A stretch of DNA of 64,000 nucleotides from a virus (lineage: Duplodnaviria > Heunggongvirae > Uroviricota > Caudoviricetes): the IMG/VR virus record IMGVR_UViG_3300037258_000931, positions 64,001 to 128,000 of that record; one strand, written 5' to 3'. Position 1 is the stretch's first letter, and every line of letters starts with the position of its first letter. The position numbers were made by a program, and so were the translations under genes. Below are positions 5,128-64,000 of this stretch, piece after piece. The notes below the pieces were generated by a model. That model saw only the letters and a list, made by a program, of their open reading frames with translations. It made no database searches and was not told where the DNA came from.

Positions 5128-5398
5128 GATAAGCGTAATGGTTCCACGTGGAACCGGGCAGCCGTTCTGTGAGATATGGAAGCGTTGAATTTGAAAACTC
5201 GGCAAATTGGAATCACGCAAAGGATGGTTCGCGAGTTGGCAGACAACTTCTTTGCGGAAACGCCGCTGTTCCGAATGCTCCATCGTAATGGCCTGGCTCG
5301 GAAGCGAATGCGGGCGTACCGGATTTTTAAGAACTCGCGTCGGCCGGCGCAGTTTCGGCAGGACGTGTGGTGAGCTGAATTTTCACAAAGGGAGACAG

Positions 5399-5632
5399 AT
5401 GCCGAAGCCAAAGCCCACAGACGAAGATCTGGAGCAGCGAGAGGTCCGGAAGCGGGAATGGCTTGCGTTCCGGAAGGAGTTTCTGTTTACTCAGGTCAAG
5501 CTGGCCGATGTGCTTGGCATCAGCCGGCGCTCGGTTCAGCTTGTCGAATCGGCTAAGGTGACGCCGCTGGCGCAGACGCTGCGAGCATTCAATGCTTTGA
5601 AGTCGCGGTACGATGCTGGCCGGGCAGCGTGA
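5399..5632 (+). CDS. XRE/Cro-like helix-turn-helix protein
   Basis: TQVKLADVLGISRRSVQLVE HTH pattern; AGGGAG RBS. Confidence 0.8.
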   Translation: MPKPKPTDEDLEQREVRKREWLAFRKEFLFTQVKLADVLGISRRSVQLVESAKVTPLAQTLRAFNALKSRYDAGRAA

Positions 5633-7809: not shown

Positions 7810-9900
7810 ATGCCGACGCCGCACTCGTTCGACCAGGTTGAAGAGTTCAAAAAATACGTCGATTCGCTGGTCAAGGTCGAAACCAACAGCCGATCCTCGT
7901 ATATCTCGGTGGTGCGCACGATCACGGAGAAGCGGCGCCAGGAGATCCGCCGCTGGATCGAGAACGAGCAGGCCCTCTGTGCTCTCGACAGCGAGTATTT
8001 CGAAAGTCGCTACGCCTACGTTTGCAATGAGGGCGGCGAGATCTACAAGTTCAAGAATCGTAAATCTCAAGAGATCTTCGACAGCGTGGTCGCCGACTTC
8101 GACGAACGCCAGGTGGCGATCCGTTTGCTGGTCCTGAAAGCGCGGCAGGTAGGCATCACCACCAAGACAGCGCTGAAATTTCTACATCGCATGCTTTTTA
8201 TTCCGCACACCCAGGCGGTCATGGCGTCGGTGCAGGCGGAAAAGTCGGAGCTGATTCGAAGGATTCTGGAGATCGCCTACAACCGTTGCCCGTGGTGGCT
8301 GGTGCCACCGCGGAAGCCGAAGGGTGCCTATGACAACGGCTCGGTCCTCTCCATCCAATCCGGCATGCAGGCCACCGGCATTGCGCAGGGTTGGACGCCG
8401 ACCTGTATTCACATTTCCGAGTTGGCCGATATTCCCAAGCCGAAGAAAGTGATTGAAGAAGGTCTGCTGCGCGCCACGCACGCGACCCGAAACCTGTTCA
8501 TGGTGTTTGAAGGCACCGGCGGCGGCAACACCGGCTGGCTGGCCGATACCTGGCGGGCCGCCCGCGAGGGGTTTCCCAAGGGCCTTCACGATCTTTGCCC
8601 GGTGTTTATTCCCTGGGCGATGGCGACGGACCTTTATCCGGAAGCGGATTGGTTGCGCCAGTTTCCGGTGCCATCCAATTTTTATGAGAAACGGGATGAC
8701 GCCACCCGCAAGCACGTGACCCGGGCCGAACTTTACGTCCGCAACACCCCCTATCTGGCCAAAGTTGTAGGAGCGCGCTGGCGCATGCCGCTGGAGCAGC
8801 AGTGGTTTTGGGAGTTCAATTACCTGAAAGCCTGTACCAACAACTCGCAGAAGATCTGGCTGGCGCAGATGCCGGCCGACGATTTCGAAGCTTTGACAGG
8901 TGTGCACGACAGCGTGTTCCCGCCCGAGACGATCGACGAGATGGAAGACCACGTCTACGAAATCGTTGGCTCGGAAAAAGTTCGCAAAAAGCCGCTGCAG
9001 GCGTACGCGATTACCGGCGACTCGATCGACGACGGATTCGAAGTGGACGACTCAGCCGTTGACTTCGGTAAGCCGCACATCCGGGTGAGATGGCTCTCGC
9101 ACCGCGGCCAGAAGTACGATTGGGTGCTGGTGCCGCTCAAGCCGCTCGACGAAGACAATGAGGCTGCGACCTTCGACAAGCTTCTGGTATATGAAGAGCC
9201 TAAACAAGGTTATAGCTATAGCTGCGGGGTGGATACTGCGGACGGCTTAGGAAAGGAAGACGAAGACCGGACCTGCGTGTCGATGACCCGCAATCGCTTT
9301 GGCGACCAGTTTGATTACCAGGTGGCGGAGTTTGTATCGAATCGCGTGAACGCGGCTCAGGCGGTAGGGTTCTCGGCTTGCATGGCGGCATGGTATGGGC
9401 AATATTCGACTGACGGCCGTGGAGTGAAGTTCTGCATCGAGCAGGTGACCCGGCCCGGCGATACCTGCCAGCACCAGCTTATGCTGATGGGATTTCACAA
9501 CCATCACAAGCCACGGCGGTATGACAGCAAGCAGGTGAAGGACGACGGCGGCAAGAAGATGGGCTGGTTTTCGAATGTATGGAGCGTGCCAATTTTGATG
9601 ATCAATTTCACTGAGGCGGTGAATGGAGGATGGTACCGGCCGCACTCGAAGTGGCTGATCGATGAGCTGAAGACGCTGGAGCGGCACGCGGCAGCGGGAC
9701 GGCAGTCGAAGATGACGCATCGTTCTGGGAAGCATGACGATCGGGTACGGGCGGCGGCACAGTCATATTTCACGGCGCACGATTTTGACGTGCTTGCGGA
9801 GCGGGCGCAAAAGCGATACGCTCTGCCGGAAGAAAAGATGAAGCCGCTGCCGATGGGGCGCGGTTCGATGAACATGGTAGGGGTCGGAGATTGGGATTGA
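7810..9900 (+). CDS. terL: Terminase large subunit
   Basis: LKARQVGITT Walker A, CIHISE Walker B, FEGT coupling motif, GVDTADG and HDDRV RNase H-like nuclease motifs. Confidence 0.92.
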   Translation: MPTPHSFDQVEEFKKYVDSLVKVETNSRSSYISVVRTITEKRRQEIRRWIENEQALCALDSEYFESRYAYVCNEGGEIYKFKNRKSQEIFDSVVADFDERQVAIRLLVLKARQVGITTKTALKFLHRMLFIPHTQAVMASVQAEKSELIRRILEIAYNRCPWWLVPPRKPKGAYDNGSVLSIQSGMQATGIAQGWTPTCIHISELADIPKPKKVIEEGLLRATHATRNLFMVFEGTGGGNTGWLADTWRAAREGFPKGLHDLCPVFIPWAMATDLYPEADWLRQFPVPSNFYEKRDDATRKHVTRAELYVRNTPYLAKVVGARWRMPLEQQWFWEFNYLKACTNNSQKIWLAQMPADDFEALTGVHDSVFPPETIDEMEDHVYEIVGSEKVRKKPLQAYAITGDSIDDGFEVDDSAVDFGKPHIRVRWLSHRGQKYDWVLVPLKPLDEDNEAATFDKLLVYEEPKQGYSYSCGVDTADGLGKEDEDRTCVSMTRNRFGDQFDYQVAEFVSNRVNAAQAVGFSACMAAWYGQYSTDGRGVKFCIEQVTRPGDTCQHQLMLMGFHNHHKPRRYDSKQVKDDGGKKMGWFSNVWSVPILMINFTEAVNGGWYRPHSKWLIDELKTLERHAAAGRQSKMTHRSGKHDDRVRAAAQSYFTAHDFDVLAERAQKRYALPEEKMKPLPMGRGSMNMVGVGDWD

Positions 9901-11105: not shown

Positions 11106-13148
11106 ATGGAGTTAGAGACAACCCACTGGCAGGTTCCCAAGTTTGAATCGAGCCCGACCGCGCGCATCGGCTGGGTGGAAGAACAGATTCAGGAGGGCGA
11201 AGGATTTCTGGAGGGCCAGGCATGTTATCGCAACCTGGGCACGAACCTTCGCGTCTTCGACGCCATTTTTCGCGATAAATCCCGTTCGACGCTGATCACC
11301 AACGAGCTGAAGTACGACATCCGCAAGTTTTGCGAGACGTTGGCGGAGGTGCGGGAGATCGCCGCCTACGGATCGGACGTGCCGGCGTACAAGCAGTACG
11401 CCGAGATGCTCACCAAAGTGGCGCGCGCGGTGTATCTGGAGTCCGATTTCCCGTCTCAGGTACTGAAATGGCTGCAATACGCCAGCGTGATGGGAATCGG
11501 ATATCTGTGGCCGAAGGTACGGGCAGACGAGTACGGATACGGCGAGCGAAAGATGGTGTTCGACGCACTAGGGCTGCTCGACGTGGTTCCCATTCAGATT
11601 CCGCGCAGCAACGATGTGCAGGATGCGTACGCGGTAACCATCTACGATTACATGCCGATTGCCGAAGCTCACGGCCGGTTCTCACTTTTCCAGGGACAGT
11701 TACAGACCGTGGGCCCGCGCAGCTATAAGACGCAGGTGCAGGCCAAGCGACTGGATTATGCCGAGCGTTTCCGTTACGGAGAGCAGGGGCGTAGCTTCGG
11801 GAATCTCTATTCGGAGATTCGCTACACGTTTATTCGTGACCTGCGCATCAACAACACCGGTTTTGAGCTGCCGATGGGCGACCCGGGAACGACCTGGTTT
11901 TACAAAGTTCCATATCTGGGGCAGCAGATCTTCGGCGGGATGCGCAACGGGCAGCCGTATATGCGCAGCGCCATGGTCGAAGACTGCCGGGTGTACCCGA
12001 CGTTGCGGCTGATCATTACTTCACCAGGCGTGGACCGGCCGATGTACGACGGACCCTGCTTTGACTGGGACAGCAAGTTTCCGGTAATTCAGCTTACGGT
12101 GGACGATTGGGCCTGGGAGGCGCTGGGGCGGTCGCTGGTAGGCGACGTGGCGACAATTGAAACGACCACGCGCAAGATCGAACGGAAGATCGACGACGTG
12201 ATTACCATCACGTTGAATCCTCCGATTGGCTATGACCACACCGCGACGGGCGGCGCTAAGATCGAGCACTTCGACATCTTTGAGCAAGATGTACGTTACG
12301 GGGTAGACGGCAAGCCGAAGGAGATCCTGCAATCGATTTTGCCCGAAGAAGTACGCGTAAATAATGAGCATTTCACCTTTTTGAAGTACCTGAAGGACTG
12401 CAAGCAGTCGCAACTTGGATTGCTGGACATGGGGAATCTGCAGAACATCAAGATGAATATTGCCAACGACACGGCGGACAAGATGCTGGAAGGCATTGGG
12501 CCGCTGGCCAAGGGCATCGCCGCGCGAATTGAAAAGGCGAACAAGGCGGTCGGGCGCCGAATGATGTTCCTGATTATGCAGTGGTTCAACGCCAGCCGTT
12601 TGATGGAATACGTCGGCCCGGAGAACATGGCGCGGGAGATGTTCGATTTCGACCCCAGCAACCTGGTGCCGAGCCATTTGCCGGACGAGATGGTGAACGG
12701 CGAGCTCCCGGTTACGCCGTCGCAATATGACCAGCTCACGCGGGCGCGCTGGTTTGTGCGCCAGATCCGGCTGATCTCGGTGCCGAGCACGTTGCTCCGG
12801 ATTACCCAGATGCAGGAGCAGTTGAAGTATCTGCAGCTCAAGCGCGGTAACGCGCCGATTTCATGGGCAACCGTGATGAAGAAGCTGGGAGTGGAGAACT
12901 ACGGCGATGTGAAAGGCAACACGGAGCGCGAGCGGTGGTTTAACGAAGAGTTGGAGACGCAAAAGCTGCAAATTCTAGCCGCGGCGCAGGCGCAACAACT
13001 GATGAAGCAGCTCGGAATACAGCCGCCAGAGCAAGGTGCAGGCGGAGGCAAGCCGCAGGGGCGGCCCACGACGGGCAATAAGGCTCCGAAGATCAAGCAA
13101 AAGGGCGGCGCGGGCGGCGCGCCACGCACAACGGTGACGGAGAGCTAG
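11106..13148 (+). CDS. Probable portal protein
   Basis: 680 aa, between terminase and scaffold/capsid; Q/G/K-rich C-terminal tail; call rests on synteny and size. Confidence 0.7.
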   Translation: MELETTHWQVPKFESSPTARIGWVEEQIQEGEGFLEGQACYRNLGTNLRVFDAIFRDKSRSTLITNELKYDIRKFCETLAEVREIAAYGSDVPAYKQYAEMLTKVARAVYLESDFPSQVLKWLQYASVMGIGYLWPKVRADEYGYGERKMVFDALGLLDVVPIQIPRSNDVQDAYAVTIYDYMPIAEAHGRFSLFQGQLQTVGPRSYKTQVQAKRLDYAERFRYGEQGRSFGNLYSEIRYTFIRDLRINNTGFELPMGDPGTTWFYKVPYLGQQIFGGMRNGQPYMRSAMVEDCRVYPTLRLIITSPGVDRPMYDGPCFDWDSKFPVIQLTVDDWAWEALGRSLVGDVATIETTTRKIERKIDDVITITLNPPIGYDHTATGGAKIEHFDIFEQDVRYGVDGKPKEILQSILPEEVRVNNEHFTFLKYLKDCKQSQLGLLDMGNLQNIKMNIANDTADKMLEGIGPLAKGIAARIEKANKAVGRRMMFLIMQWFNASRLMEYVGPENMAREMFDFDPSNLVPSHLPDEMVNGELPVTPSQYDQLTRARWFVRQIRLISVPSTLLRITQMQEQLKYLQLKRGNAPISWATVMKKLGVENYGDVKGNTERERWFNEELETQKLQILAAAQAQQLMKQLGIQPPEQGAGGGKPQGRPTTGNKAPKIKQKGGAGGAPRTTVTES

Positions 13149-51332: not shown

Positions 51333-51497
51333 TCAGGGCTTGATGACCGTGTGGAACAGCAGCAGGGCCAGCGCGAGCAGAATCAGGCGGTCTTTGAGTT
51401 CTTCGGCGCCGAAGACGGCTAAAGCACAGCAAAAGCAGGCCACCAGGTAACGGGCCAGATTGGCGAGATCGGAAAGTGGCAGGGCGGCGATCTGCAT
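51333..51497 (-). CDS. Small two-TM membrane protein (54 aa)
   Basis: TGATG coupling with the upstream GT gene; hydrophobic. Confidence 0.45.
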   Translation of the reverse strand: MQIAALPLSDLANLARYLVACFCCALAVFGAEELKDRLILLALALLLFHTVIKP

Positions 51498-52207
51498 CAG
51501 GACTGCACCTGGAAGGGAAGCACGTCGGAGTAGTTTTCGTAGAGCCACTTATGGGCGGCGGTTGAGTCTTCTGGAATGATAGAGGGGCTGCGGCCGCCCC
51601 AGTGGTCGCAGTCGACGCCGACCAGCCGGTTGCGCAGTTTCTGGCGGCGCACTTCGCAGGATATCCAGTAATCGTAGACCCAGTAGCTGACCGGCTGATT
51701 CTGTGGCCAGCCGCCGCAGTTTTCAAGGACGGAGCGGCGGATGAAGAGCGCGAACCCGTCGAAGACCGCGACGTCGCAGACACCTGAAAAGCGCTGTCCA
51801 TGTGATTCAGCGTCGCGGCGCATGTTGGACCGGGTGCGCAGCCGGGTGAAGTTGGCGACCTGGAAGGGCTCGTTGTAGAGCTGCGGCAGGCCATGGCCAA
51901 GGCCGCCGAAGAATCCCACTGCGCCGACGGTTGGGTCTTCAAATTCGCGGGCCACGCGCAGATCCCACCCGGGCTCATAAATCGTTACGTCGTCGTGGAC
52001 GTAGGCGATGATCTCTTCGCTCGTGTTCTCGAAGATCTCCTGGTAGGCCACCATCATGGGCTTGCGGTAAACCTCATAGAGCGGATAGCGCTCGGAGGCG
52101 GTCGCGTACCAGCTATCGATACAGGCCAGCCAATTGCCGGGGGGAGCGCCAGGGTCCGGATTGGGATTGCCCCAGTGCAGGGTGGCATTGCCGAAGACCA
52201 GCTTCAT
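51497..52207 (-). CDS. GT-A fold glycosyltransferase
   Basis: IAYVHDDV DxD-type motif, FDGFALF, WVYDYW. Confidence 0.8.
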   Translation of the reverse strand: MKLVFGNATLHWGNPNPDPGAPPGNWLACIDSWYATASERYPLYEVYRKPMMVAYQEIFENTSEEIIAYVHDDVTIYEPGWDLRVAREFEDPTVGAVGFFGGLGHGLPQLYNEPFQVANFTRLRTRSNMRRDAESHGQRFSGVCDVAVFDGFALFIRRSVLENCGGWPQNQPVSYWVYDYWISCEVRRQKLRNRLVGVDCDHWGGRSPSIIPEDSTAAHKWLYENYSDVLPFQVQS

Positions 52208-57443: not shown

Positions 57444-57977
57444 ATGCCAAGCGTTATCTACAGACCGGTGCTGGTCATTAACGCGGCGTACGAGCCGGTG
57501 TCGATCCAACCGGTGCGTTATGCCTTGAGCATGATGGTGAAGAGCAAGGCGGTGATGGTAGAGGATCTCGATGTGGAGATCCGCCCTGGGCTGCGAGTGC
57601 CTTCGGTGATTCGTCTGGAGTTTAACGCCGAGGAGGACAAATACCGCCACTCGCGGATGCCGCGCAAGATGCTGAGCCGGAAAAATATTTATATCCGCGA
57701 CCACTTCAAGTGCCAGTATTGCGGGACGCGGCCCAATCCCCGCGAGCTAACCTTGGATCATGTAACCCCGAAGTCGCTGGGGGGCAGAACCGCGTGGGAA
57801 AATCTGGTGGCGTGCTGCAGAAAATGCAATCATGCCAAAGGCAATAAGACGCTGGCGGAGGCGGGATTGAGCCTGCTGCATCCGCCCCGGGAATTGACAG
57901 TTCACACTCACCGGCATCTGCTTCGCAGGCTGGGACTGGAAGAGGACGAGCGGTGGGGCAAGTATCTTTATGCGTGA
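57444..57977 (+). CDS. HNH endonuclease (McrA-like)
   Basis: [47 protein letters not shown]. Confidence 0.92.
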
Positions 57978-58460: not shown

Positions 58461-58832
58461 ATGTCAAAGACCACGGTAGGGCCGTTCACCGCATTTGTAG
58501 GCCGGCGGATTGGGATGAGGCGGAAGACTAAAAAAATCCCCGCAGAAGAGATGGCCAGAAAAATCGGCGTGAGCCAGACGGTGCTGGACAACATGGAGCG
58601 CGGCCTGTGCCACATCAATCTGGAGCAGCTAATGCAGTTTGCGCGCTGGCTGACGCCCACCAGCGATCTGCTGGGGCTGCCGCAGATGGTGGACGAGGAC
58701 ATGAACGACTACCTGGACAAGCGCATCCGGGCGATGACCGAGGAGGAGCTGCGCGCCTGGCAGAGCGATCCGGCACCCTATCTGGAAGACCGGCGCCGGC
58801 TGTTTGTGCTGGACCTGGATGAAGGCCAGTGA
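58461..58832 (+). CDS. XRE-family HTH protein
   Basis: IPAEEMARKIGVSQTVLDNMERG. Confidence 0.8.
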   Translation: MSKTTVGPFTAFVGRRIGMRRKTKKIPAEEMARKIGVSQTVLDNMERGLCHINLEQLMQFARWLTPTSDLLGLPQMVDEDMNDYLDKRIRAMTEEELRAWQSDPAPYLEDRRRLFVLDLDEGQ

Positions 58833-59329
58833 CTCCGGTTCCCGAACACCCGCGTTATCGCGCCATGTGGAGCCTGCTGGAGCGGGGCTGGACGTTGACC
58901 GCGATCGGGGTTGAGCACGGCTTGACCCGGGAGCGGGTACGGCAGATCGTGGGCAACTTCGGGCATCGCGAATTAGGGCCTAACCAGGCCATCGCCGCTC
59001 GGTTCAGCCTTCAGATCGTTGAACAGTGGAAAGCTGGCAAGACCAACCGGCAGATTGCCACCGCTCTCGATATTCCTCTAGCCGCGGTGGTGGCGATCGG
59101 ACTGCGGGCGAACTACCGGTATCAGCAGCATGGCACCTTGCAGAGTTATCGCAGGGGATGCAAATGCGACGCCTGCAGAACGGCCAACAGCCAACACACG
59201 AAAAGCATGAACGCACGGCTGCGCACGCAGGGCCGCTGCGTGCGGTGCGGGGGGCCGTCGCCGTTGACCTGGGTGTGCGCGGCATGCGTGCGAAAAAATG
59301 CCGAGAGTCGGGCTAAAAAATTTACTTGA
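58829..59329 (+). CDS. Sigma-region-4-like HTH protein with C-terminal Cys motifs
   Basis: TLTAIGVEHGLTRERVRQI; HGT..GCKCDAC; CVRC/CAAC. Confidence 0.7.
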   Translation: MTPVPEHPRYRAMWSLLERGWTLTAIGVEHGLTRERVRQIVGNFGHRELGPNQAIAARFSLQIVEQWKAGKTNRQIATALDIPLAAVVAIGLRANYRYQQHGTLQSYRRGCKCDACRTANSQHTKSMNARLRTQGRCVRCGGPSPLTWVCAACVRKNAESRAKKFT

Positions 59330-59354
59330 CAGAATTCTCGGCATTGGCTAGGGT
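59326..59354 (+). promoter_or_regulatory. Sigma70 promoter of the tRNA operon
   Basis: TTGACA-N17-TAGGGT; predicted +1 at 59361-59362. Confidence 0.8.
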
Positions 59355-59361
59355 TGACTTC

Positions 59362-59433
59362 ATGAAGCAGGTTTTATCCAGTTCGTCGCTCTCATTGTGC
59401 TCGCTCCTGTATTCGTATGGGGGACGTGTCTGA
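59362..59433 (+). CDS. Leaderless attenuator-like leader peptide MKQVLSSSSLSLCSLLYSYGGRV
   Basis: ATG at the predicted +1; codons 5-19 are all Leu/Ser/Cys/Tyr; absent from the ORF track (23 aa). Confidence 0.8.
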   Translation: MKQVLSSSSLSLCSLLYSYGGRV

Positions 59434-59462
59434 GCGGGAACCTACGTTCGGATGCGGACCCT
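59419..59462 (+). promoter_or_regulatory. Antiterminator hairpin
   Basis: 59425-59436 pairs with 59445-59456 (12 bp, 4 GU), tandem G.A, then GGGG 59419-22 with CCCT 59459-62, which overlaps the terminator 5' arm. Confidence 0.7.
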
Positions 59463-59484
59463 GGCTAACCAGCCAGGGTTTTTT
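59458..59484 (+). terminator. Intrinsic terminator between the leader and the first tRNA
   Basis: ACCCTGGCT-AACC-AGCCAGGGT followed by TTTTT. Confidence 0.9.
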
Positions 59485-59522
59485 AATTGCGCCGAACTTT
59501 TTGGATTGCAATTGCGGATTGT

Positions 59523-59598
59523 GCGCGCGTGGTGAAAGGGCAAACACGACCGATTTAAGATCGGTTCACTGGGAGTTCGAATCTCTCCGCGCGCACCA
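59523..59598 (+). tRNA. trnL: tRNA-Leu(UAA) with a short 5-nt variable loop
   Basis: GCGCGCG/CGCGCGC acceptor, ACCGA-TTTAAGA-TCGGT, A73, encoded CCA. Confidence 0.88.
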
Positions 59599-59669
59599 TA
59601 AAACAGGTTTCAGGGATCAGGGATCAGTAAAAGCCAGGGGCCAGGGATCAGGATCAGGGGTCCGTTGAG

Positions 59670-59746
59670 GGGCGAGTAGCCAAGACGGTAAGGCATGCGC
59701 CTGCAAAGTGCATCATGCGGGAGTTCGATTCTCCCCTCGCTCTCCA
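59670..59746 (+). tRNA. trnC: tRNA-Cys(GCA)
   Basis: Loop CTGCAAA, U73, encoded CCA. Confidence 0.9.
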
Positions 59747-59770
59747 GAATTACGATGTGGATTAGGTTGT

Positions 59771-59852
59771 GCGCCTGTGGCGTAATGGAAGCCGCGCTCG
59801 TCTTAGGAACGAGTCCTTCGGGGTGGGGGTTCGAGTCCCTCCAGGCGCACCA
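59771..59852 (+). tRNA. trnL: tRNA-Leu(UAG)
   Basis: CTCGT-CTTAGGA-ACGAG, variable arm, A73-CCA. Confidence 0.92.
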
Positions 59853-59856
59853 ATAA

Positions 59857-60036
59857 CAGAGATCAGTAGTCAGGGGTCAGGGGTCAGTTAAGTGCAAAGG
59901 CAAAAGCAAGAGCAACCGCGGGTCCTTCGGCTTCGGTCGCTTTGCTCCCTTCGCTCAGGATGACAACCGATTTAGGTGCTCAGGATGACAGGTTTTTACT
60001 GATCCCTGATCTCTGACCTCTGATCGCTGATCTCTG
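59857..60036. mobile_element. Composite element family A, copy 5, between two tRNA-Leu genes
   Basis: Same nested architecture. Confidence 0.7.
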
Positions 60037-60043
60037 TTCGCTT

Positions 60044-60127
60044 GCCGGTCTGGCGGAACGGAAGACGCGCTGGACTCAAAACCCAGTGTCTTAGGACGTG
60101 CGGGTTCGATTCCCGCGGCCGGCACCA
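60044..60127 (+). tRNA. trnL: tRNA-Leu(CAA)
   Basis: Loop CTCAAAA, variable arm GTC-TTAG-GAC, A73-CCA. Confidence 0.92.
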
Positions 60128-60133
60128 GAATTA

Positions 60134-60219
60134 GGAGCGCGGGCAGGACGGTAATGCAACTGCTTGCTAAGCAGCACATCTTTCGGGATGACGGTGTTCG
60201 ATTCACCGGCGCTCCGCCA
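60134..60219 (+). tRNA. trnS: tRNA-Ser(GCU)
   Basis: Loop TTGCTAA, long variable arm, G73-CCA. Confidence 0.88.
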
Positions 60220-60236
60220 TATTTATAATTGCGGCC

Positions 60237-60410
60237 ATGGAAGAAAAGAAGATCTGGCCTATTAGCTGCTTTACGGGAGAGTTCCCGGCTGGCGCGTGGC
60301 GGTTTGTCCGCGAGTATTACGGCACTGAATCTGAGGCGTATGCGCTGGCGGCGGCGCTTGAAGCTGAGCGGGATGACGGCCAATATCGCGTGTGGGATTG
60401 CAGAGAATAA
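60237..60410 (+). CDS. Small hypothetical protein (57 aa, MEEKKIWPIS...) between tRNAs
   Basis: Fills the gap between the two tRNA-Ser genes; read by hand. Confidence 0.45.
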   Translation: MEEKKIWPISCFTGEFPAGAWRFVREYYGTESEAYALAAALEAERDDGQYRVWDCRE

Positions 60411-60414
60411 GTTT

Positions 60415-60509
60415 GGAAGCGTGGACGAGTTGCGAAAGTCACCAGTCTCGAAAACTGGCGTGCGCATCGGAAGGTGCCACCGGGGGTTGAATTCCCTCCG
60501 CTTCCGCCA
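60415..60509 (+). tRNA. trnS: tRNA-Ser(CGA)
   Basis: CCAGT-CTCGAAA-ACTGG, long arm, G73-CCA; T-loop TTGAATT is atypical. Confidence 0.85.
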
Positions 60510-60574
60510 TGATCATGCCGCGCATAGGGAATGAATGCCACCGGGCGCGCCGCGGCAGACGGAACGAATCCTGA

Positions 60575-60602
60575 TTGACCCTTTTTGAAACGCGCCTAAG
60601 AT
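60575..60602 (+). promoter_or_regulatory. Candidate internal promoter
   Basis: TTGACC-N16-TAAGAT. Confidence 0.45.
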
Positions 60603-60608
60603 AAGGGC

Positions 60609-60815
60609 GTGGACCACTGGATCTTGAAGACGGACCGGTGCCGGCACTGCGGCAAGGTGACCTACGAGAGCCAGCAAGACGCCGAATACGCGGCGCGCAA
60701 CCTGGTTCCGGCGCAGGCGCCGTATAAGTGCCTGTACGGGAACGGCTGGCATTTGACCACGGTACGGCCTGGGCCGGGGGAGAGATCAGGCATGCGGCAA
60801 GCCTACCCCGTCTGA
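60609..60815 (+). CDS. Small zinc-finger-like protein overlapping a tRNA
   Basis: CRHCGK..Y..C..WH pattern; GTG after AAGGG. Confidence 0.55.
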   Translation: MDHWILKTDRCRHCGKVTYESQQDAEYAARNLVPAQAPYKCLYGNGWHLTTVRPGPGERSGMRQAYPV

Positions 60816-60866
60816 AGCGGGACATACCGCAAGGTATTGCGAGTTCGACTCTCGCTCTCTCCGCCA
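60779..60866 (+). tRNA. trnS: tRNA-Ser(UGA) with atypical C33
   Basis: GGAGAGA/TCTCTCC acceptor, loop TCTGAAG, arm ATACC-GCAA-GGTAT, G73-CCA. Confidence 0.8.
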
Positions 60867-60880
60867 TTTATAAAAGATCC

Positions 60881-61348
60881 ATGCCGCAATTATTTTTAGA
60901 CTGTGACGGGGTGTTGGCCGATTTCGATCGCGGAGCGGAAAGCGTATTTGGATGTCCGCCCCGCAAGTTTGAAGAGCAGCACGGTACGCACTGGTTCTGG
61001 AAGACGTTGCACGGCTACCGGGACTTTTATGCGACGCTGCCGGCGATGGCTGATGCTCAAGTGCTTTTTGACGCGGTGAAGCACCTGGGTCCGGTGATTT
61101 TGACCGGTTGTCCGCAAGGCGGCTGGGCTCAGGAACAGAAGTTGCGCTGGCGCGACCAGCACTTTCCCGGGGTGGAGATGATTACCACGCTCTCGAAAGA
61201 TAAGCGGGACCACGGCCGGCCTGGCGACGTTCTGGTGGATGACTATCTGAAATACCGACCGCGGTGGGAAGAGATGGGTGGGATCTTTGTGCATCACCGG
61301 TCGGCTCATGATTCCCTGCAAGCATTGCGAGGGTTAGGTGTGCTTTAA
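60881..61348 (+). CDS. HAD-superfamily 5'(3')-deoxyribonucleotidase-like phosphatase
   Basis: FLDCDGVLADF, ILTG, LVDD. Confidence 0.85.
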   Translation: MPQLFLDCDGVLADFDRGAESVFGCPPRKFEEQHGTHWFWKTLHGYRDFYATLPAMADAQVLFDAVKHLGPVILTGCPQGGWAQEQKLRWRDQHFPGVEMITTLSKDKRDHGRPGDVLVDDYLKYRPRWEEMGGIFVHHRSAHDSLQALRGLGVL

Positions 61349-61355
61349 TTTGCAA

Positions 61356-61447
61356 GCATGTGTGGCAGAGTGGCGATTGCGCCTGGCTGTAAACCAGGTC
61401 CCCTGAGCGGGCTAACACCGGTGGTTCGAATCCATCCGCATGCACCA
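61356..61447 (+). tRNA. trnY: tRNA-Tyr(GUA)
   Basis: CCTGG-CTGTAAA-CCAGG, long arm, A73-CCA. Confidence 0.92.
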
Positions 61448-63782: not shown

Positions 63783-64000
63783 ACCGGTGCTATACTTTCC
63801 CCGCGGGGAGGGAAAAGTGGCAATCCGCCGGGCTCATAATCCGGAGAAGCCCGTTCAACCCGGGCTCCCGCAACCAAGCTTTGATTTGCCTGATCGGCGG
63901 TTTCGATCGGGATGCCGGCTCAGTGGTGATGCACGTTTGTTGCTCGACCTTGTATAGAGCCGGCAAGTTTGAACCGGGGAGAATGCAGCGGTAGCTTAGC

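Follow-up and report, generated by a model that had tools for sequence, protein, structure and literature searches.

Putative leader-peptide attenuators in front of the tRNA gene blocks of a soil and root phage

Why should a phage place a short open reading frame (ORF), with a long uninterrupted run of leucine, serine, cysteine and tyrosine codons, between a promoter and a terminator directly ahead of transfer RNA (tRNA) genes for these same four amino acids? The question is raised by a stretch of 64,000 nucleotides (nt), hereafter the window, which corresponds to bases 64001-128000 of IMG/VR virus record IMGVR_UViG_3300037258_000931. The record, from soil and root metagenomes, is 132,674 bases long and was judged 99% complete. 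ARAGORN finds 33 tRNA genes in the whole 132.7-kb genome, all on the plus strand and in a single array of ~19 kb that spans the record ends (genome 123523-132326 and 196-9757), and the eight tRNA genes behind the short ORF (block 1) are the start of this array. Judged from its sequence, the element in front of them, which we call unit 1, is probably a ribosome-mediated leader-peptide transcription attenuator gating the phage tRNA block, and one of three such units in the array. The components of unit 1 and its block are listed below in window coordinates, where MFE denotes the minimum free energy fold.

59326-59354, plus strand: sigma70-type promoter read from the sequence, with TTGACA at 59326-59331, a 17-nt spacer and TAGGGT at 59349-59354.
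59362-59433, plus strand: predicted leaderless leader ORF of 23 sense codons, with an unbroken stretch of 15 Leu/Ser/Cys/Tyr codons at positions 5-19 (59374-59418).
59404-59423, plus strand: hairpin H1 (region 1:2), in which codons 15-17 pair with UAUGGGGG across a UUCG loop in the MFE.
59425-59456, plus strand: hairpin H2, 12 bp, covering the stop codon in the MFE.
59419-59462, plus strand: H2 extended by GGGG:CCCU across a tandem G.A, a candidate antiterminator that takes the base of the terminator 5' arm.
59457-59486, plus strand: intrinsic terminator from sequence and MFE, with a 10-bp G+C-rich stem at 59457-59480, an AACC loop and U6 at 59481-59486.
59523-59598, plus strand: tRNA-Leu(UAA), first gene of block 1 (ARAGORN; Rfam RF00005, 59.7 bits).
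59670-59746, plus strand: tRNA-Cys(GCA) (ARAGORN and Rfam).
59771-59852, plus strand: tRNA-Leu(UAG) (ARAGORN and Rfam).
60044-60127, plus strand: tRNA-Leu(CAA) (ARAGORN and Rfam).
60134-60219, plus strand: tRNA-Ser(GCU) (ARAGORN only; absent from the Rfam list).
60415-60509, plus strand: tRNA-Ser(CGA) (ARAGORN and Rfam).
60779-60866, plus strand: tRNA-Ser(UGA) (ARAGORN; in Rfam only a sub-threshold tRNA-Sec-like match).
61356-61447, plus strand: tRNA-Tyr(GUA), last gene of block 1 (ARAGORN and Rfam).

The original prediction, made from the letters of the window, had described most of this layout. Its promoter, its 23-codon ORF with only Leu, Ser, Cys and Tyr at codons 5-19, and a strong intrinsic terminator between the ORF and the first tRNA were all recovered when the sequence was read again, and its eight tRNAs (three Leu, three Ser, Cys and Tyr) were confirmed with the same anticodons by ARAGORN and, for most, by Rfam. 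The ATG at 59362 lies 7 nt past TAGGGT, a Shine-Dalgarno sequence is absent, and the predicted +1 coincides with or adjoins the ATG, again as proposed. The general promoter pattern TTGACN-N16-18-TANNNT has only five plus-strand matches in the 132.7 kb, and all five lie inside the tRNA array.

How unusual is the codon content of the leader? Across the six frames of the genome, its 15-codon Leu/Ser/Cys/Tyr run is the longest, the next mixed run being 8. Each of the eight block-1 tRNAs has a cognate codon in the leader, in agreement with the earlier claim that every one of them could read a codon in the run, and 15 of the 22 codons match, with a joint p of ~5e-5 against random stop-free windows of the same genome. 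Nevertheless, 15-residue windows of at most four amino-acid types number about 65 over the six frames, and a scan of ~250,000 windows makes chance cases possible. The ORF might thus belong to an independent small gene or small RNA that has its own promoter and terminator and merely lies beside the array, its codon match being a coincidence of scanning many windows. This explanation is very unlikely, because the same genome holds two further matched units with a joint p of ~1e-8 for those alone, because nine scored homologous units occur elsewhere, and because one relative (L006) has no room for a promoter between its terminator and its first tRNA. These further units are described in turn.

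Two more promoter-leader-terminator units, each headed by one of the five promoter-pattern matches, lie outside the window:

Genome 131641-131813, plus strand: unit 2, with its promoter at 131641, a leader of 25 codons at 131680-131757 and a terminator at about 131783-131813; the start codon is 7 nt past the -10 element.
Genome 5344-5538, plus strand: unit 3, with its promoter at 5344, a leader at 5396-5479 and a terminator at about 5508-5538; it precedes tRNAs for Trp, Met, Lys (two), Arg (two), Val and Gly.

The block behind unit 2 comprises Asn, Gln (two), Gly, Thr (three), His, Ala, Phe and Pro (two) tRNAs. Of the 24 post-start codons of its leader, 21 encode exactly the eight amino acids of this block, and all 12 tRNAs are covered (joint p 2e-5). 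Leader 3 holds TGG, ATG, AAG, AAA, AGG, CGG, GTA and GGA, which are exact cognates of the eight anticodons in its block (8/8, joint p 1e-3). The match is also specific to each block: the codons of leader 1 fit their own block at 15/22 and the other two blocks at 3/22 and 6/22, and those of leader 2 fit their own block at 21/24 and the others at 2/24 and 2/24.

Units 2 and 3 have the same TTGACA-containing 20-mer (AGATCTTTGACAATCGAAAT) in the gap from terminator to first tRNA (131861-131880 and 5541-5560, respectively), and a similar sequence, CTCTTTGACAA, precedes tRNA-Trp in the related contig L112 (~12445-12460). From its position, it could be a remnant of an ancestral promoter of the kind that abuts the tRNA genes of some relatives, or an operator. 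A pattern scan of viral contigs for a 17-mer preceding the tRNAs of units 2 and 3 returned four unrelated matches only.

Do other phages keep such units? The HNH endonuclease gene upstream of unit 1 proved a productive handle for finding relatives, and homologous leader-terminator units were found in six other lineages, in which the adjacent HNH protein is 51-61% identical (57-59% in L006). The unit-bearing relatives are L006, L106/L107, L110-L112 (three units), L113/L114, L115 and L116 (three units), where L110, L111 and L112 are samples of one 139.7-kb contig. Related viral contigs share a common array order, i.e., Leu(UAA), Cys, Leu, Leu, Ser..., Tyr, Met, Asp, Glu, Asn, Gln.... The orthologues keep the promoter-start geometry, with the start codon 7 nt past the -10 element. 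Their unit-1 leaders retain a run of 9-12 Leu/Ser(/Cys/Tyr) codons in differing order and sequence, and in L116 the run is interrupted by Glu, Asn and Asp codons. The peptide sequences diverge freely, and what is kept is their composition. A reading of the leader peptide as a lipoprotein or signal peptide was rejected, as a lipobox is absent and only composition, not peptide sequence, is conserved.

Several other searches for relatives returned little. BLASTN of the region against cultured phages gave matches to tRNA genes only. Exact-pattern scans of viral contigs gave no matches for the promoter and, for the terminator, L006 and otherwise unrelated coding or terminator matches. The small Sigma70_r4-like protein encoded upstream of unit 1 had no useful homologues in viral contigs and two distant ones in a large protein database. 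An NT5C-like gene inside the block led to relatives without nearby tRNAs (L002 and L003), and the whole records of its relatives yielded one syntenic array, which is leaderless (G001/L005). A metagenome scan with the HNH alignment gave 80 loci, none of them with a Leu-first array after the HNH gene.

As a check, the original prediction suggested asking whether leader codons in related phages track the downstream tRNA set, and in large part they do. We scored 12 units whose blocks are visible, three in this genome and nine homologous ones in the six other phage contigs: 101 of the 110 block tRNAs have a cognate leader codon, with per-unit joint p values from 0.002 to <5e-5, and the match to the own block is the dominant one in each of the three genomes with three units. 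Leaders change along with gains and losses of tRNAs in their blocks, with some exceptions that are considered below. In L106, the Cys and Tyr tRNAs are absent from their usual places (checked with Rfam), and the run has no Cys or Tyr codons. In L116, Met, Asp and two Glu tRNAs follow directly after Ser(UGA) with no genes or promoter between, and leader 1 gains Met, two Asp and two Glu codons; the window leader has no Met, Asp or Glu codons, and its Met/Asp/Glu group is a separate unit. L112 and L116 carry Ile(UAU) and Ile(GAU) in block 3, and their third leaders hold four and two Ile codons, respectively. L006 has a Ser(GGA) tRNA and a TCT codon in its leader. In L111, the leader has a Tyr codon, and a divergent Tyr(GUA)-like gene missed by ARAGORN is present at L111 6508-6598.

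This covariation bears on a simpler explanation, that each terminator is a constitutively leaky terminator or insulator after an ordinary small gene, and that the codon match reflects general phage adaptation or a constraint of RNA structure without any sensing. Some conserved codons (CTC AGT TCG) do double as a strand of a conserved helix, and relatives exist that manage without a leader. But the match is block-specific, as given above for leaders 1 and 2 and likewise in L111/L112 and L116, and the composition of the peptides is kept while their sequence diverges and shifts along with the tRNA set. We therefore regard a leaky terminator without sensing as an unlikely explanation of these units.

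If the units are attenuators, how would they work? We infer where transcription starts, that the leader is translated, in which direction and how strongly the switch acts, and what slows decoding in the cell. Host RNA polymerase would initiate at the unit promoter, and a ribosome would load on the 5'-terminal AUG and translate the 23-codon checklist, which holds at least one codon for each tRNA of the block. When reading is fast, the ribosome would arrive at the stop codon, which lies in the 5' arm of H2, and would keep the G-run and H2 off the base of the terminator. The terminator would then form, and transcription would end ~120 nt from its start. When a charged tRNA is scarce, its codon would be read slowly and the ribosome would stall in the Leu/Ser/Cys/Tyr run. 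The G-run and H2 would then be free to sequester the 5' arm of the terminator, and the polymerase would enter the tRNA genes. The outcome would be a demand-driven supply of tRNAs, one block at a time.

The geometry of the units fits this scheme. In all 13 units, the codons share a reading frame that opens with a 5'-terminal start codon and closes with a stop, and a terminator lies between the leader ORF and the tRNAs. The start codon is 7-10 nt past the -10 element in most units, which points to leaderless mRNAs, so that the first ribosome should trail the polymerase closely. The distance from the stop codon to the terminator stem is 23-32 nt in 12 of the 13 units. A terminating ribosome would therefore cover the 5' half of the antiterminator (the G-run and the H2 5' arm) and could not melt the terminator, which favours read-through upon stalling. 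In L006, the tRNA begins 3-4 nt past the U tract, which leaves no room for another promoter, and hence its tRNAs must arise by read-through.

The MFE of the window leader RNA consists of H1, H2 and the terminator (z = -3.0). The 16-bp hairpin at 59419-59462 that the original prediction had proposed to cover the stop codon and sequester the terminator arm is the predicted fold of a transcript cut before the terminator 3' arm, and in this form it stands; the full-length MFE contains only its inner 12 bp. The same option of pairing a G-run with a C-run is available in the orthologues. In the alignment of the unit-1 leaders, the ORFs have GCTCAG in common and the stop-codon regions its complement CTGAGC, which corresponds to the region 1:2 pairing, and the terminator stems differ in sequence by compensatory changes while keeping their position.

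Each leader was then folded with a 28-nt ribosome mask at every codon. In L006, the ribosome-free RNA forms 1:2 and the terminator, a stall at codons 5-10 removes the terminator from the full-length MFE, and a ribosome at the last codons or the stop brings it back, so that in this model L006 is a textbook attenuator. A mid-run stall also removes the terminator from the full-length MFE in L115, and in L111 it does so at a single codon only. More generally, the terminator 5' arm is sequestered with the ribosome in the run and freed at the last codons or the stop in L006, L111, L115 and unit 1 of L116, and less clearly in L106; in L116 unit 1 and, less clearly, L106, this is a graded trend in transcripts cut before the 3' arm. 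Modelling of ribosome position is thus supportive for the family.

Could the logic run the other way? Fast translation of the leader might cause read-through, with a closely following ribosome blocking the folding of the terminator, and the phage would then make its tRNAs in a feed-forward manner, only when decoding works. The leaderless starts imply tight coupling of ribosome and polymerase, and the equilibrium folds of the window unit and of units 2 and 3 show no clear stall-dependent antiterminator, both of which would suit such a scheme. However, the 23-32 nt between stop codon and terminator stem exceed the ~13 nt that a terminating ribosome covers downstream, the stop codon is placed so as to cover the competing G-run and H2 5' arm, and the models of L006 and L115 lose the terminator upon a mid-ORF stall and not with the ribosome at the stop. 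A switch opened by fast translation is therefore unlikely, and stalling remains the preferred cause of read-through.

The codons are displayed beside a terminator-antiterminator pair, and one might ask whether they sense tRNAs directly, the run pairing, as a T-box would and without translation, with uncharged tRNAs through their anticodons. But the codons of all 13 units are in frame between a 5'-terminal start and a stop, Stem I or T-box sequence features were not seen, and a single RNA would have to read up to 12 tRNAs. Rfam searches of the window and orthologous leaders gave nothing above threshold, and no match to the T-box (RF00230) or another known leader family at E up to 1. Direct sensing is thus very unlikely, and translation by a ribosome is retained as the probable means of reading the leader. 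Membership in the anti-hemB family (RF02837) was also considered and rejected, since three leaders reached 16-21 bits against a cut-off of 49.5, which we read as a general likeness of hairpin plus terminator.

The core of the original prediction, a leader-peptide attenuator that gates the very tRNAs by which its sensor codons are read, draws its support from units 2 and 3, the nine homologous units, the tracking of tRNA sets and the geometry of stop codon and terminator. A number of observations weigh against it. The folding with ribosome constraints that it had proposed favours it in L006, L115 and one codon of L111, and the window unit itself gives a weak result: its modelled antiterminator is only 4 bp and a tandem G.A stacked on H2, and its terminator is in the MFE at every ribosome position, so that any switch there would need to be kinetic. 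In units 2 and 3, the ribosome-free state sometimes leaves the terminator arm paired. Conservation of part of the Leu-Ser-Ser motif (GCTCAGTTCG) extends to its nucleotides, which are complementary to CTGAGCG at the stop codon, and RNA pairing thus explains some of the codon content. The codon match also has its exceptions. Leader 3 of this phage has two Ile codons though the genome lacks an Ile tRNA gene, no TTG leader codon is present for Leu(CAA) in L106, L111 and L116, and L006 has Cys codons with no visible Cys tRNA, its contig ending inside the array. The sequencing runs listed as containing the phage include no RNA run, and in three DNA runs (X1-X3) the leader is identical to that of the window, so that natural variation there is nil.

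Relatives without a leader belong to the same side of the balance. In L009 and L011, a TTGACA/TAGGAT promoter lies 10-11 nt before tRNA-Leu; in L007/8 and L014, ordinary protein genes follow the promoter; and in L010, a TROVE/vWA gene takes the place of the leader. The absence of a leader from these several relatives indicates that the device is dispensable. Within the array of this phage, moreover, internal promoters would make some tRNAs independent of an attenuator. One such site, listed below, had been flagged as a possible promoter in the original prediction; it is indeed present and is one of the five genome-wide plus-strand matches to the promoter pattern.

60575-60602, plus strand: internal promoter-like site, with TTGACC, a 16-nt spacer and TAAGAT, preceding a 68-amino-acid Cys-rich ORF and tRNA-Ser(UGA).

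From its location, this site may feed the last two tRNAs of the block, Ser(UGA) and Tyr, partly independently of the attenuator. The second case is the group of Met, Asp and two Glu tRNAs between blocks 1 and 2, which has no leader. An extended -10 element (TG-n-TATACT) at window 63788-63796 lies 5 nt before its tRNA-Met (63802-63876), and the group seems to have a promoter abutting the tRNA, i.e., the leaderless arrangement of L009 and L011.

In another relative, L012, a G+C-rich and apparently non-coding sequence of ~395 nt separates the promoter from tRNA-Leu (L012 5247-5642), and a second identical promoter, at 8596, has a related stretch behind it. This sequence may be a structured RNA of a new kind.

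What would slow the decoding of the leader? Candidates are a host with a poor tRNA pool, starvation for amino acids, tRNA-cleaving host defences (the example given in the original prediction) and simply the initial absence of the phage tRNAs, which would turn the units into negative-feedback regulators of phage tRNA output. Control of phage tRNA genes is, to our knowledge, essentially undescribed, and the reasons for which phages carry tRNAs are debated, with proposals including compensation for codon usage, replacement of degraded host tRNAs and escape from anticodon nucleases. If the attenuator reading is correct, phage tRNA supply would be regulated on demand and per isoacceptor set, and the leaders would give a direct read-out of the codons that the phage treats as limiting. 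The compact units (~160 nt) could also act as natural reporters of decoding speed for chosen codons.

Leader-peptide attenuators are well known from amino-acid operons, such as trpL, hisL, leuL and pheL and the multivalent thrL and ilvL/ivbL. The phage units resemble them in having a short ORF with sensor codons, a terminator before the first gene of the block and predicted 1:2, 2:3 and 3:4 pairings that could compete. The stop codon is likewise sited so that a terminating ribosome would block the antiterminator, and multivalency is shared with thrL and ilvL. They differ in their targets, since classical attenuators control amino-acid biosynthesis enzymes or a synthetase whereas the genes behind the phage units are tRNA genes. 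Unlike a classical leader, a phage leader can sample as many as eight amino acids and 12 isoacceptors, mostly with one or two codons apiece; its synonymous codons are chosen so as to cover every anticodon, and the mRNAs are mostly leaderless. The units are also phage-borne, and three of them partition one tRNA array. The pheM attenuator of the E. coli pheST operon, which encodes phenylalanyl-tRNA synthetase and is subject to feedback via charged tRNA, is similar in that leader-peptide attenuation controls a component of the translation apparatus, but its target is a synthetase, it senses one amino acid and it is cellular. T-box riboswitches likewise sense tRNA status and control an intrinsic terminator 5' of translation-related genes, but they recognize a single uncharged tRNA by direct binding, need no translation and are marked by conserved Stem I and T-box motifs. 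Our literature search found no account of leader-peptide attenuation of tRNA genes, whether phage or cellular. The novelty would lie in the use of a known attenuation mechanism on tRNA genes as a new class of target. If correct, it would extend trp/his/ilv attenuation to new target genes and to a very high multivalency of up to 12 tRNAs per leader.

Does the arrangement reach beyond these metagenomic relatives? The phiCbK-like Caulobacter phages similarly have large tRNA arrays in which small ORFs and homing-type nuclease genes are scattered among the tRNAs, and their genome description does not mention attenuation or leader peptides (PMC3556154). The record of one of them, CcrKarma (JX100811.1, here L117), annotates terminators right before tRNA blocks, and two such units were noted (L117 5123-5352 and 7488-7680, the latter at about 51430-51622 of JX100811.1). 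One of these, which we checked, has TTGACA, 17 nt, TAGGGT, 7 nt and then the ATG of a 32-codon ORF rich in Phe, Val, Ile, Gln and Arg; a terminator lies 31 nt past its stop codon and is followed by Phe, Val, Ile (two), Val, Gln (two) and Arg tRNAs. In the other, gp083 (45 amino acids, rich in Pro, Lys, Leu and Ser) is followed by a terminator and then by Pro (two), Lys (two), Leu (three) and Ser (two) tRNAs. The same layout in a cultured phage makes the idea directly testable and offers a possible experimental model. Taken together, we consider it reasonably likely that the units form a modular sensor of decoding capacity, in which each block stands behind a leaderless codon checklist that samples every isoacceptor and is transcribed only when decoding is slow; this would be the first class of attenuator whose output is tRNA, and it appears to recur in unrelated phage lineages including CcrKarma.

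The region 5' of unit 1 holds the HNH endonuclease gene (window 57444-57977), a 152-amino-acid ORF, an HTH_3 protein and a small protein with a Sigma70 region-4 match. The last two are both small and DNA-binding and are encoded immediately upstream of unit 1 (window 58461-59329), with the gene of the region-4-match protein terminating within the -35 region of the unit-1 promoter. In L113, a Sigma70_r4 gene is likewise close to the HNH gene. Given its place beside TTGACA promoters, the region-4-like protein could be a regulator of the tRNA array. The HNH family itself adjoins phage tRNA arrays in many otherwise unrelated metagenome contigs (loci L022-L101). Its close homologues are source-labelled Acidobacteriota (Bryobacteraceae, Terriglobia), which hints at the host group.

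Further features were noted within the arrays. A vWA gene lies within the array of this phage (window 62678-63568), and Ro60-like TROVE/vWA genes lie in or beside the tRNA arrays of two relatives (L010/L005 871-2253 and L116 7268-8635). Repeats of the CAGGGRTCAG type occur in the inter-tRNA gaps at window 59600-59665 and 59853-60043, and the latter is predicted to fold into a 190-nt hairpin (-88 kcal/mol, z -7.3). Pieces of 59853-60043 have a word depth of 400-1900 in soil metagenome contigs compared to ~19 for the phage, which indicates a family of repeats common in this habitat that may be a REP- or MITE-like element of the host. Finally, downstream of the promoter at 9376, genome positions 9560-9640 contain an apparent tRNA 3' half (T arm, acceptor strand and CCA) followed by a 5' half (acceptor strand and D arm). 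The two halves, which lie shortly before tRNA-Thr(UGU), may represent a tRNA-like gene that is permuted or split.

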